In this document: positions 4,076 to 9,093 of the stretch, piece by piece | Layout of the letters: the number at the start of each line of letters is the position of its first letter | Numbering within the stretch: position 1 is the first letter of the stretch | Source: Escherichia phage DTL | Sequence record: MG050172 | DNA: 45,814 nucleotides | Strand: one strand, 5' to 3' | Translations under genes and position numbers: made by a program | The notes under the pieces: generated by a model | The model's input: only the letters and a program-made list of their open reading frames with translations | What the model was told of the DNA's origin: nothing | Database searches by the model: none

Positions 4076-5659
4076 TCACCCCAGCAGTCGCGGATTAATG
4101 TAAACTTTATCACCAATCAGGCACGTATAGTTCTTCTCATCGAGCATCGGCAGTAAGTGATCTTTAATCTTCGTCATTACTCCAGCCTGAGCCTCGAACG
4201 GCTTAACCTTGCGAGCCGCTTCATACAATGAACGAATGCCAACAACACCCTTACCGTTTTTGCCTTGCTTGATCAGAATGTCAATCAACTTATTCATCTC
4301 GGCATTGTCACCAGCGTGACCTGCGGCATTAGCAGATGAAAGGTAAGTTTTGCTTAGTTCATTAAACATAATTACAGCTTCTTGCATGGTATCCAATTCA
4401 ATTTCCCTGGACTTCTGCGGACTACCACCATTTGGGTTGAACCAGTTACGCACAGTGTGAAGAACCGCCGCAATCCTGATAGCCTGTTTATCGAATTTAC
4501 CCAGGGCGCCGCGCAGCATCGTGTGCGAATATTTTCCGCCGTCAGCAAGGTGCGGCTCCATTTCCTGGCGTGCTTTGTTGAGATATTTCATTGCCGAGTT
4601 GCTAACCGTGAGCTTAACATCTTGTTCGTTCATTATTTCGTGAACCAAGCGGAAATAATCAGCCTTCAGCCCACCATCAATAGGTTCGTAAGTTGAGTCT
4701 CCATTCTCATCAACGAACACGCGCTCGCCAAGAAATGACTTCTCGCGTACAAGCAGAAAACGCTCAGAAACACCGATACCACGCGCACCAGCATTCATGA
4801 TTGCGTTAATCGTCTCATCCTGCGCAATTACAGATATGCAGCCCATAGCAACGAAACTCATATTATTCTCTGAGTTCGCGCGCGCAATAGATACGTTACC
4901 CGCATCCCACGCTTTAAGCACGAGTTCGCTGTTCGTTTTCTTAGAGCCATCACCATAGGTCATGCCTAAAAGTGAGTTAACGCTAGTTGCTTCGTCAGAA
5001 ATTACCGCAAAGTTGCCCTGACGGTTGTTTATTCGCGCAAGACCTTCCGGCGTGGTGTCGGATACGGGGAAAACGATATCGCAAAGTTTCTCGAGCTTTT
5101 CCTCAAGATCCTCCTTCTCCTCAAAAAGAGAGGCCATCTCTGACGGAGATTTTTCCTGCTTAATCTCTTTGGATAATGCAGATAGTTTGGCCATAATCTT
5201 TTTTCGCTCACGTTTTCGCACTTCATTAAGCCGCTCAGTCTCAGCAATCATTGGAGCAATTGAAAGTGAGTTGATTGCTGATTTACCAGTCGATGGCGGC
5301 TGGCTTGTTACAACATAAAGCGAAGTTGGTTGCTGAGTTCCGTGATACTCAACTGTAAATCGTCCTAGCATGGCGGCAGAAATACACCCCAGGAAGTGCA
5401 TGTATGCGGACGACTCCGGAAACTGAACAGAACGAGCGATATTGGATGATAGTTTGCCAACAACATCAATATCATTACCCAATGAGATTACGGGATACTT
5501 GTCATTAGCCGCATCAATCTCGACTGGCGCTTTCCAGAATGATTGAGACTGGCGATATCCATTAGCATTAATAGCGACTCGCAGTGGGGTGAGGTTGTCT
5601 GCTGCAGCAATTGCCATAACCTGTTCAACAGATAGTTTATCTTCGTTGAAATCAAACAT
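4076..5659 (-). CDS. hypothetical protein (527 aa), full-length member of a two-member paralog family
   Basis: Long ORF; N- and C-terminal ~40 and ~80 aa are homologous to the 140-aa product of 8671..9093. Confidence 0.5.
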   Translation of the reverse strand: MFDFNEDKLSVEQVMAIAAADNLTPLRVAINANGYRQSQSFWKAPVEIDAANDKYPVISLGNDIDVVGKLSSNIARSVQFPESSAYMHFLGCISAAMLGRFTVEYHGTQQPTSLYVVTSQPPSTGKSAINSLSIAPMIAETERLNEVRKRERKKIMAKLSALSKEIKQEKSPSEMASLFEEKEDLEEKLEKLCDIVFPVSDTTPEGLARINNRQGNFAVISDEATSVNSLLGMTYGDGSKKTNSELVLKAWDAGNVSIARANSENNMSFVAMGCISVIAQDETINAIMNAGARGIGVSERFLLVREKSFLGERVFVDENGDSTYEPIDGGLKADYFRLVHEIMNEQDVKLTVSNSAMKYLNKARQEMEPHLADGGKYSHTMLRGALGKFDKQAIRIAAVLHTVRNWFNPNGGSPQKSREIELDTMQEAVIMFNELSKTYLSSANAAGHAGDNAEMNKLIDILIKQGKNGKGVVGIRSLYEAARKVKPFEAQAGVMTKIKDHLLPMLDEKNYTCLIGDKVYINPRLLG

Positions 5660-5733
5660 TACTTCTCTCCGTATTGTTTCTGAGCGGCCATTATATCAAC
5701 GACCGCTTATAATTCATTATCAATTTTTGCTAT

Positions 5734-6087
5734 TTACAGGTATTGAGCCTCAAAATAGTACGTGCCACAGAGAGTAAAGAACCCAACACCCTCACTTCGG
5801 TAAAGCTGCCATGGCTGACCATCTTCGTCATAAATGTATCCGGCATTTTGTCCAAGCCCCGCATGAAGTGCCACCTGGTATCTCTTTCCAAGCTTGAATG
5901 ACTTCTTAAGTGATGAGTTGTGGTTAACTCTGGTTACATAAAGAGTCTTGGTCTTAATGTATTTGCCGCGCTCTTCAAGGTTAAACCATTTGCCATCTTT
6001 CTTGATTTGATCCACTCCATCTTTAACGCGAGCCTTGTATAGTACGTTTTCGTTGCTGATCCAGTTTTTAGTAATCGTAGTGGTCAT
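5734..6087 (-). CDS. hypothetical protein
   Basis: 117-aa ORF; preceded on its own strand by the TATATT -10 and CATCGAAACGAAAC leader. Confidence 0.45.
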   Translation of the reverse strand: MTTTITKNWISNENVLYKARVKDGVDQIKKDGKWFNLEERGKYIKTKTLYVTRVNHNSSLKKSFKLGKRYQVALHAGLGQNAGYIYDEDGQPWQLYRSEGVGFFTLCGTYYFEAQYL

Positions 6088-6150
6088 TTTGTTTGCCTTC
6101 GTGTGTTTCGTTTCGATGAGATGAATATACAGGAAAAGCCCCGAATGGCT

Positions 6151-6402
6151 TTAGCAATTAGTGCTATTTATTGCATTGAGTCCAAGTGGTGTTATCACTA
6201 CATTATACCAAGTTCCAATCTCTGGCTTATTTACATTATATGCCATCTCTACATAGCCTAGCCGAAATAGTTTTGGTATACACCTGGATGACTTGCCAGA
6301 ATCTCGAATCCTGCCTCGACTAAAGTCATAACTTATTTGATGAATCTCTCCATTATGAATGCAGTGGAGGGTTTTTATTGCGGATTCAGAAATTTTAATC
6401 AT
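6151..6402 (-). CDS. hypothetical protein
   Basis: 83-aa ORF; its stop lies within a minus-strand copy of the ATAGCAC element. Confidence 0.4.
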   Translation of the reverse strand: MIKISESAIKTLHCIHNGEIHQISYDFSRGRIRDSGKSSRCIPKLFRLGYVEMAYNVNKPEIGTWYNVVITPLGLNAINSTNC

Positions 6403-6566
6403 TTATGTTCACCGTTAATATTCTTTGCTTTTTCTATCGCCTTAAGCATAATTTCATGACTCTCCAGCAAGTCCTCGCGGAACCAATCACCGCAAGGCCA
6501 GCCCTTTCCAGACATTCTTGATATAACTTCAAAATCCCAATAATTCAAATCTGAAGGTAAAAGCAT
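6399..6566 (-). CDS. small hypothetical protein (55 aa)
   Basis: ORF found by eye, start/stop overlapping neighbours (ATGA); below track cutoff. Confidence 0.25.
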   Translation of the reverse strand: MLLPSDLNYWDFEVISRMSGKGWPCGDWFREDLLESHEIMLKAIEKAKNINGEHK

Positions 6567-6568
6567 AG

Positions 6569-7329: not shown

Positions 7330-7342
7330 ATTTCAATCCTCA

Positions 7343-7516
7343 AAATGGAATGCAGTGATTACAACCCTCACCACTACAACAGAAATCTTCATCTTCTGAC
7401 TGGAATTGCTTTGCCAGATCAATGTCTAGCTTTCCGCGCACCACAAGGTCTGTGTAATCTTCGTTAAGTCCAATCAGTGCACATTCGTGACGTAACTCAT
7501 CTTTATCAAGCTTCAT
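7343..7516 (-). CDS. small Cys-containing hypothetical protein (57 aa)
   Basis: ORF found by eye with CCSGEGCNHC; first gene downstream of the minus-strand promoter element at 7571..7590. Confidence 0.3.
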
Positions 7517-7739
7517 GTCTTTCTCCTCGCTGTTGATGGGTTAACTATATCCCCACTAACTCATAATGTCTTTAGCAAAAAGTGCCATTCGTTAGATTTA
7601 TGGATTGTTGCAGATATTGCAATGATTCTCATGATTATTGCGTATATAGCAATATTGCTTCAGATGCAATGATTTTTTTGATTGTTGCGAAAAGTGAAAT
7701 GAAGTGGTGAGTGAGTGAATGAAAGAATGATGGACTACC

Positions 7740-8170
7740 ATACAAGTTGATTTTGATTCTGGCTGAGCCATTTTAACGCTTACGCGTAACGCCAGTAGCG
7801 CGATGTAAGCCAACGCCTATCGTTACGCTAGTTACGCGCAGATACGCCATGACTTACACTATAAGTGCTTAATATATATATATATCTTCTTTCTATTATT
7901 ATTATTATTATTAATATTATTGTATGTAAGTCGTGTAACGGGGGTCCCGGCGATATCTATATGTTTTTTCCTATCAGGATGCATTATTTCCATTTTATGT
8001 GAGATTTAGCCATTATGGGGCCACCCAGCCAATTTACCTCGTTACACGAACGACGCGAAACTACATTGAGCTATAGCTGGGCTAGTGTGCCATTTAGCGT
8101 AACGACCCCCGGAAGTTACCAAAAATTACACTTGACTACATGTGTAAGTCGGGATATGATTGATTCAACT
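7740..8170. promoter_or_regulatory. divergent control region A: iteron-like GTTACGC repeats, (AT)n and (ATT)n tracts
   Basis: ~650 bp between divergent gene blocks; TCGTTACGC/TAGTTACGC direct repeats, palindrome TTACGCGTAA, (AT)7 at ~7873 and (ATT)6 at ~7894; homologous to 34400..34860. Confidence 0.5.
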
Positions 8171-8191
8171 TAAACGAGAGGAGTGATAGAG

Positions 8192-8671
8192 ATGAGCGAG
8201 AAGGTAACATTAGGCCAAGTGATTCGTGAGATGGTAAAAGCAGCGCTTAATTCTGAGGATAAGCAGATCAGCGTGACACTCAACAAGATTGAGAGCCTTA
8301 TTGGCGCCGAGGATGGTGGTCTACACAAGCTTAAGAGCTCATACATCTACAATACAACGGCTCGTATGCCTGAGTTGAGAGGCGCGGGGCTGAAGGCAAC
8401 TCACCATTATGATGAGGAAAGGGGTATTAATGAATTTACTGGGAGTGAGATACTTGGGGATAAAAAGCTGGTTATCAAGCTGATTCCTGGAACTGCAAAC
8501 ATTGGAATCAGAAAGAAGACCAACGACGCGATCAAGGATGAGGCAATCACTGAGTTCAAGTCCAGGATTTCTAAGGTGATGCCAGACCTTTCTGAGTATG
8601 AAGGTGAGGCGCTTGCTGCTGCGATGAAGGCCATTAAAGATTACCGTCTAATTATTGAGGAGATTAAGTAA
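8192..8671 (+). CDS. hypothetical protein
   Basis: ATG after RBS GAGGAG; track ORF 8183..8671. Confidence 0.45.
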   Translation: MSEKVTLGQVIREMVKAALNSEDKQISVTLNKIESLIGAEDGGLHKLKSSYIYNTTARMPELRGAGLKATHHYDEERGINEFTGSEILGDKKLVIKLIPGTANIGIRKKTNDAIKDEAITEFKSRISKVMPDLSEYEGEALAAAMKAIKDYRLIIEEIK

Positions 8672-9093
8672 TGTTTGACTTTAACGAGGATAAACTGACA
8701 GAAGAGCAGGTTATGCAAGTCGCCATGGCAGATAGCCTTCCACCACTACGTGTTGCAATCAACGCTAACGGGTATCGACAGTCAACGGCGTTTTGGGGCT
8801 CGATTGATACCCCAGAGGTGTATAGTGGTGATGAGCTTGGCGTGCTGATTAGAATCATCAGGAAGATGGGAGTTAACGGAAAAGGAGTTGTCGGCATCAG
8901 GTCTCTATATGAAGGTGCTCGCAAGCTGAAACCATTTGCGGGGCGCGATGGAATGATGCTAGTGATTAAGGATAAGCTAATTCCAGAGCTCGATAAGATG
9001 AATGTTACCTGTCTAATTGGAGATAAGGTTTACGTCAACCCCTCCTTGACGGATTTAAGCTGGCAACCCAACTTCAAAACTTACGAAGGTTAG
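8671..9093 (+). CDS. hypothetical protein (140 aa), internally shortened paralog of 4076..5659 product
   Basis: Shares MFDFNEDKL...PLRVAINANGYRQS and NGKGVVGIRSLYE...CLIGDKVY segments with the 527-aa protein. Confidence 0.5.
   Translation: MFDFNEDKLTEEQVMQVAMADSLPPLRVAINANGYRQSTAFWGSIDTPEVYSGDELGVLIRIIRKMGVNGKGVVGIRSLYEGARKLKPFAGRDGMMLVIKDKLIPELDKMNVTCLIGDKVYVNPSLTDLSWQPNFKTYEG

Follow-up and report, generated by a model that had tools for sequence, protein, structure and literature searches.

In the papillomavirus E8^E2 and E2-TR proteins and in Tn5 Inh, a shorter form of a replication protein keeps the DNA-binding or interaction domain and lacks the effector domain, and would be expected to compete with the full-length form or to enter mixed complexes with it. 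These forms are isoforms of a single gene, produced through alternative promoters, splicing or starts. For the satellite phage P4, the Cnr protein reportedly acts through winged-helix heterodimerization with the alpha protein, as proposed by Yeo et al. in 2002 (PDB 1KA8). The C-terminal winged helix of the P4 alpha primase-helicase serves in origin binding (PMC2777425), and the separate small protein encoded by cnr tunes replication in copy-number control (PMC8628076). DUF3987 proteins have been described as superfamily 6 (SF6) replicative helicases whose C-terminus carries a winged helix-turn-helix (PMC4889955); for AgaPH, a distant PriCT-DUF3987 member of this family, 5'-3' helicase activity has been shown, and the protein binds its own primase (PMC11724360). 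Here we describe a locus of the T1-like Escherichia phage DTL (Drexlerviridae, Braunvirinae; MG050172; the window analyzed is the whole stretch of 45,814 nucleotides) in which the gene for a DUF3987/SF6 (MCM-like) replicative helicase of 527 aa (4076-5659, minus strand) is accompanied by a divergently oriented paralog encoding a protein of only 140 aa (8671-9093, plus strand). The short gene is very probably an internal-deletion derivative of the helicase gene, and its product may modulate the helicase. A search of the literature on DUF3987, on DTL, Rtpvirus and Braunvirinae, and on P4 Cnr found no published description of this paralog pair.

The DTL pair resembles P4 alpha/Cnr in that a helicase with a C-terminal winged helix occurs together with a separate small protein. 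However, alpha is a superfamily 3 (SF3) helicase and the DTL protein an SF6/DUF3987 helicase, the P4 and DTL proteins show no sequence relation, and, unlike Cnr, the DTL small protein is a paralog of the helicase that also keeps its N-terminal module (N-module) and for which a regulatory role is only proposed. A likeness to truncated antagonists such as E2-TR and Tn5 Inh is found in the sharing of domains, as the short protein has the N-module and winged helix of the helicase. It differs from them in being the product of a separate, inverted gene copy with approximately 30% nucleotide divergence and in having an internal deletion and not a terminal one. The 527-aa protein itself is similar to described DUF3987/SF6 helicases (it has the Pfam domain, the Walker A and B motifs and, at the C-terminus, a winged helix, and its AAA+ fold is MCM-like), whereas the short protein is built from the helicase ends only, without the core or ATPase motifs. 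As far as the amber codon, the short protein matches phrog_7327 over its whole length, and the DTL copy differs from this family in lacking the last ~34 residues; the family is annotated without function and its name does not reflect derivation from a helicase.

Both open reading frames (ORFs) are present at the coordinates given in an earlier, model-generated reading of this sequence (the original prediction), and the terminal similarity between their products that it had claimed is real and far beyond chance. By BLASTP, residues 1-73 of the helicase match residues 1-69 of the short protein (56% identity, E-value: 3e-21) and residues 448-525 match residues 51-126 (63% identity, E-value: 7e-30). 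These segments are collinear, and the centre of the helicase had no BLASTP match in the short protein. Within the first 43 residues, 33/43 positions (77%) are identical. Each protein also matches the other's family in hidden Markov model (HMM) searches, the short protein matching phrog_2373 "DNA helicase" (E-value: 1.2e-24) and the helicase matching phrog_7327 (E-value: 3.8e-53). When the short family was compared with the helicase by profile-profile alignment (hhalign), the probability was 99.6% (E-value: 1.2e-24) and the alignment reached the last residue of the helicase. Similarity at the DNA level is likewise evident, at slightly lower values than the predicted 70-75%: 68% over codons 1-43 (88/129 nucleotides; 5531-5659 on the minus strand in the helicase gene and 8671-8799 on the plus strand in the short gene) and approximately 70% over the C-terminal module. 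This second module, a winged-helix domain, corresponds to aa 448-527 of the helicase (4079-4318, minus strand) and to codons 51-126 of the short gene (8821-9048, plus strand). As predicted, the short protein is missing the centre of the helicase, residues ~44-447; this segment of ~400 residues (~390 in the original prediction) includes the AAA+ core, and a 7-residue linker takes its place.

A domain search of the 527-aa protein, the check that had been suggested for it, identified a DUF3987 helicase. It matches PF13148 at 143.9 bits, compared to a gathering cutoff of 27, over aa 81-430. The Walker A motif is QPPSTGKS (residues 120-127) and the Walker B motif is VISDE (residues 219-223), and 52 homologs show no variation at residues P121, P122, S123, G125, K126 and E223. 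The structure model has an MCM-like AAA+ fold for the core and a winged helix at the C-terminus. Judged by these features, the protein is an ordinary member of the DUF3987/SF6 family. In the AlphaFold model, three short helices (residues 11-21, 25-33 and 36-41, with the motif PLRVAINANGYRQS..FW) form a separate unit that is connected to the core by a lower-confidence linker, and the winged helix spans residues 451-521. Both of the modules shared with the short protein lie outside the Pfam DUF3987 core and are modelled as separately folded, linker-tethered peripheral domains. A PriCT domain was not detectable in the N-module by Pfam search; in contrast to AgaPH, the module of the DTL helicase is a family-specific three-helix unit. 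When the helicase profile was run against solved structures, no match fell below an E-value of 0.18.

The short protein (DTL gp16; a 100% match to NCBI HOS46_gp16 of Escherichia phage DTL) consists of the N-module, the 7-aa linker and the winged helix. In its match to phrog_7327 (E-value: 1.6e-69), protein residues 1-140 align with positions 1-143 of the 179-position profile; a TAG codon deprives the DTL copy of the final ~35 positions. No Pfam match was found at an E-value below 0.1, and the DUF3987 ATPase core is absent. Only helicase residues 1-43 and 448-527 align with it. The short protein is a derivative and not a member of the DUF3987/SF6 family and, without the ATPase motifs, it cannot be a helicase. 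An AlphaFold2 model of this protein (predicted local distance difference test [pLDDT] score 68 overall and 84-91 over the N-module) has helices at residues 11-41 as in the helicase and a winged helix at residues 54-122. Following the winged helix, residues 136-152 are modelled as disordered, and in the 174-aa relatives a terminal helix follows at residues 154-171. The N-module motif MF.F....L......A...G..PLRVAI..NGYR.S..FW is kept in the helicase and short families alike, and in the short family this motif, like the winged-helix hairpin CLIGDKxY, shows little or no variation.

The distribution of the short gene is consistent with the internal-deletion origin proposed in the original prediction. 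All Drexlerviridae helicases of the DUF3987 type carry both the N-module and the winged helix. The short gene, in contrast, is found only in Braunvirinae and Rogunavirinae, and always directly behind a DUF7174 (rtp1-like) gene; this gene order was identical in all relatives examined. It is absent from the Tempevirinae phage tonn, where a different gene occupies that place, and the helicase is the only match of the short protein in genomes of T1-like phages and Webervirus. Short proteins of 11 lineages each score best against a Braunvirinae or Rogunavirinae helicase, with scores falling with helicase distance, and short copies of the phiEB49 type retain the last helicase residues (YINPRLL-G). 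A profile search of 1.84 billion representative sequences returned only 47 clusters, which comprise short paralogs, fragments and helicases of this phage group as well as two unrelated repeat proteins. One match to the N-module profile (E-value: 6e-7) was P0272, a eukaryote-like repeat protein of 633 aa with five repeats of the form MTAEEALAAAEAEGLPLIRSAxSSSGYKHV, each ahead of an AP2-like segment; this match may be compositional or may indicate a remote relation to the N-module.

As the two modules show ~30% nucleotide divergence, the duplication is therefore old. With terminal modules that lie outside the core, a clade-restricted short gene and best scores to the helicase of its own clade, derivation of the short gene from the helicase gene by internal deletion is very likely. 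In this scenario, the helicase gene would have been duplicated in inverted orientation across the early control region in the common ancestor of Braunvirinae and Rogunavirinae. An internal deletion of ~1.2 kb would then have removed the AAA+ motor (~44-447), fusing the three-helix N-module to the winged helix, and the reading frame would have been extended beyond the old helicase stop, gaining a short helical tail. The original prediction of an old duplication followed by deletion stands, while the HNH endonuclease gene that it placed between the paralogs (6569-7093, minus strand; HNH_3, PF13392, E-value: 8.7e-17) has no apparent part in it. This gene is absent at that spot in AugustePiccard (L001) and in the metagenomic relative L028, and is an incidental insertion outside of the paralog system. 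The 45.8-kb genome contains four such HNH_3 homing-endonuclease genes, the others being at 35110-35583 (plus strand), 40964-41443 (minus strand; immediately adjoining the primase gene at 40044-40967) and 44067-44540 (plus strand).

Of three further relationships that were considered, two were rejected and one was not supported. The tail of the short protein (aa 127-174) was not copied from the gene that lies downstream of the helicase gene (BLASTP E-value: 0.77); although tblastn alignments crossed the helicase stop into an in-frame 111-aa ORF, this extension is due to chance. An apparent second copy of the short gene in L024 is one gene seen twice, the assembly being terminally duplicated, of low quality and rich in ambiguous bases. 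Finally, residence of the divergent short protein P0245 together with its best-matching helicase P0130, from which co-evolution or gene conversion could have been concluded, was not supported: the phage with P0130 (L031) has no short gene.

Selection on the two genes was compared using pairwise Nei-Gojobori ratios of nonsynonymous to synonymous substitution rates (dN/dS) in eleven genomes, with short-gene values taken where dS was unsaturated. For the short gene, dN/dS was 0.15-0.25 across 11 lineages and two subfamilies (for example, dN 0.059 and dS 0.36 for DTL and AugustePiccard, and dN 0.084 and dS 0.378 for IME253 and ESCO41). More than 100 protein clusters of ~174 aa exist for the short family in intact form. 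This pattern indicates that the short gene is under purifying selection and belongs to a maintained family, rather than being a dead remnant. In the same genome pairs, helicase dN/dS was 0.012-0.04, such that the short protein changes approximately ten times faster, and identities of 42-86% among short proteins stand against 90-98% among the corresponding helicases. The helicase is also a conservation island in a mosaic region (90-98% aa identity across two subfamilies, dN/dS ~0.02): the neighbouring genes at 3737-4072 and 5734-6087 show identities of 53-92% and 55-85%, respectively. A strong Shine-Dalgarno (SD) sequence, GAGGAG, is located at 8657-8662 and the ATG of the short gene overlaps the TAA stop of the DUF7174 gene (TAATG), which argues that the short gene is probably expressed. 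Even so, it is not universally retained. Phage Rtp (rtp2, L034 1064-1123) has no more of it than a 19-codon stub (MFDFTEEKLTDEQVMRIVE*), behind which lies a lipoprotein-like gene that is unrelated, EC3a (L004 893-1411) has a stop at codon 37, the L012 copy (7001-7526) has a stop plus a frameshift, and in L031 the DUF7174 gene is directly followed by DUF7180. Because of this repeated damage or loss, the short gene is dispensable and accessory.

The short gene yields an early, translationally coupled, ATPase-less product made up solely of the two linker-tethered peripheral modules of the helicase. We put at roughly 50% the probability that this protein acts as an accessory modulator, binding a ligand in common with the helicase and adjusting how the helicase is recruited, an estimate that applies to the whole proposal including the origin described above. 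The modules retained are those that in SF6/MCM-type helicases and primase-helicases would usually touch DNA or partner proteins, and not those that form the ring; the P4 alpha winged helix that binds origins (PMC2777425) and the contact of AgaPH with its primase (PMC11724360) are examples of what terminal winged helices and N-terminal appendages do. The mini-protein would bind a ligand of the helicase, either DNA (of the origin or control region) or a protein (the primase or a factor of the host), with the PLRVAINANGYR motif or the CLIGDKxY hairpin as putative interface elements. In doing so it would tune helicase loading or replication initiation in a non-essential manner, as a competitor or adaptor; in DTL, the C-terminal helix would additionally have been lost via the amber codon. 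Conservation of the N-module motif in both families suggests that both proteins still bind the same partner through this module.

Several observations weigh against this proposal. The winged helix of the short protein diverges strongly between lineages (proportion of nonsynonymous differences [pN] up to 0.4), while that of the helicase is 90-98% conserved, and this divergence is awkward if both proteins must recognize the same site or partner. It speaks against a simple competitor that the helicase winged helix and control-region repeats stay constant while the short winged helix varies. As mosaicism and fast evolution extend to all of the early operon (DUF7174 proteins are 30-96% identical across relatives), the rate of the short gene alone says little. 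Frequent loss and truncation would fit a gene of marginal value as well. Confidence in the AlphaFold2 model of the short protein is no more than moderate (pLDDT 68), and a Foldseek search of this model against the PDB gave no match below an E-value of 0.48, the weak top matches being winged-helix domains.

The short protein could also be an adaptor for the helicase (a loader or anti-loader) that the phage derived from the two docking domains of the helicase itself, an idea that we regard as unlikely. The N-module would hold the partner of the helicase N-terminus (the primase or a host replisome protein) and the diverged winged helix would bind lineage-specific DNA or a host target. If true, these phages would be able to tune replication initiation by a switch that depends on the host, and the recurrent stops at the linker between winged helix and tail would represent adaptive tuning or leaky read-through sites. 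It is possible, though not probable, that the short protein acts independently of the helicase protein as a stand-alone winged-helix regulator that binds control-region repeats and governs early promoters, origin firing or both. The winged-helix fold, the proximity of the gene to conserved intergenic DNA in which GATTGTTGC/TTGCAATGAT repeats and an (ATT)n tract occur, and the origin binding of primase-helicase C-terminal winged helices such as that of P4 alpha (PMC2777425) are all consistent with such a role, but these repeats are highly conserved between lineages in which the short winged helix is highly variable, and the phage already encodes a Cro-like regulator (41496-41969).

The short gene could instead be a nearly neutral relic of a failed duplication, without a function of its own, that persists in some lineages and erodes in others. 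The Rtp stub, the EC3a and L012 disruptions, the absence from L031, the tail truncations in DTL and Veterinaerplatzvirus and the tenfold faster change relative to the helicase are what such a relic would show. However, a neutral 174-codon ORF would not remain open at dS > 1, and the dN/dS values at unsaturated dS in lineages as distant as two subfamilies, the >100 intact 174-aa clusters, the (near-)invariant N-module motif and CLIGDKxY hairpin, and the conserved SD and translational coupling make this explanation improbable. Patchy presence, absence and inactivation is also typical of host-interaction genes, and the short gene is an early gene within a mosaic, fast-evolving accessory operon. 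The protein could thus be a decoy that mimics exposed surfaces of the helicase and soaks up a host factor or defence sensor or, conversely, could itself be a trigger that some lineages have lost. Taken together, these two possibilities are very doubtful: the reading is purely inferential, and the short protein shows no similarity to known defence or anti-defence families, as searches of the helicase, short protein and DUF7174 protein against NCBIfam and PADLOC were all empty, as was Pfam for such families. Modulation of the helicase through a shared ligand is the reading that we favour.

The length of 140 aa given in the original prediction is correct for the DTL product but is not the norm for the family, as relatives are 174 aa in length. 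Codon 141 of the short gene is a TAG amber codon (9091-9093, plus strand) where relatives have GAG (Glu). Beyond it lies an in-frame tail remnant (9094-9195, plus strand) of 33 conserved codons followed by the family's usual stop (9193-9195), which is untranslated in DTL barring amber read-through. The same TAG is found in metagenomic relatives L028-L030 (89% identical; L028 6421-6525), and Veterinaerplatzvirus (L002 7418-7528) has an independent TGA at codon 140 with the downstream frame intact. Downstream of either early stop, 33-35 codons are in frame and conserved. Both stops fall in the linker that is predicted to be disordered, so that by the model they would remove only the terminal helix. 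It is possible that these stops are read through, that they are tolerated truncations in a disordered linker or that they are recent events. A phage-encoded suppressor tRNA for the amber codon was rejected, as the sole tRNA gene is tRNA-Arg(tct) (12077-12154), which is present in the Veterinaerplatzvirus relative as well (L002 10768-10845).

Within the gene, conservation is highest in the segment that encodes the tail, including at synonymous sites (where synonymous divergence is lowest). For DTL and L028, both of which have the TAG, the tail shows a pN of 0.08 compared to a proportion of synonymous differences (pS) of 0.45. A 22-nucleotide stretch (9099-9120, CTAGTAGACTACCATACCACTT) shows no DNA difference among five lineages, although identity between their short proteins is only 62-92%. 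Conservation of the tail could reflect read-through, an element acting at the DNA or RNA level, or recombinational exchange of a conserved block, and the 22-nucleotide stretch may mark the boundary of a recombination event or hold a DNA/RNA element within the gene. An 11-mer (GACTACCATAC) is common to the tail remnant and the control region; two copies of an 11-mer are expected by chance in 46 kb (with one mismatch allowed, 8/100 shuffles).

The divergent intergenic control region (7517-8182, 666 bp) lies between the two paralog-bearing operons. It contains GATTGTTGC, TTGCAATGAT and ATTATTGC repeats with overlapping palindromes in a block at ~7604-7700, an AT-rich (ATT)n tract at ~7868-7920 and a promoter-like site at 8132-8160. 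The repeats and (ATT)n tract are conserved across Braunvirinae and in the Rogunavirinae phage AHS24. Based on its sequence, this looks like an operator- or origin-type region, and it could be a DNA target of the short protein, as a candidate only. The hexamer CGTAAC occurs 34 times compared to 13.7 expected (0/100 shuffles reach 34), with clusters of five in the control region (7491-8103) and nine at 33334-34777, where the GC skew flips. To the right, the early block opens with the DUF7174 (rtp1-like) gene (8183-8671, plus strand; PF23796, E-value: 2.3e-45). The leftward block on the minus strand comprises the 111-aa ORF, the helicase gene, small ORFs and the HNH_3 endonuclease gene; elsewhere in this part of the genome are the endolysin (2872-3357, plus strand) and u-spanin (3333-3722, plus strand) genes. 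Overall, the DTL locus is 84-89% identical to those of Braunvirinae (Drexlerviridae, Rtp-like) coliphages.

These results allow phrog_7327, now of "unknown function", to be re-annotated as a helicase-derived domain-loss paralog. As a biological event, this adds a further instance to a familiar pattern, the loss of domains after duplication. DUF3987/MCM-like proteins serve many phages and mobile elements as replicative helicases. A natural construct of N-module and winged helix that has been selected in >100 phage lineages would mark these modules as independently functional interaction units, and the short protein would be a ready-made probe for partners of both. A natural series is available in tractable E. 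coli phages, from the Rtp stub and the EC3a stop through the tail-less DTL and Veterinaerplatzvirus forms to the intact genes of AugustePiccard/Bas01 and IME253. The short paralog may be of most use as a way into the docking of DUF3987 helicases to their partners.

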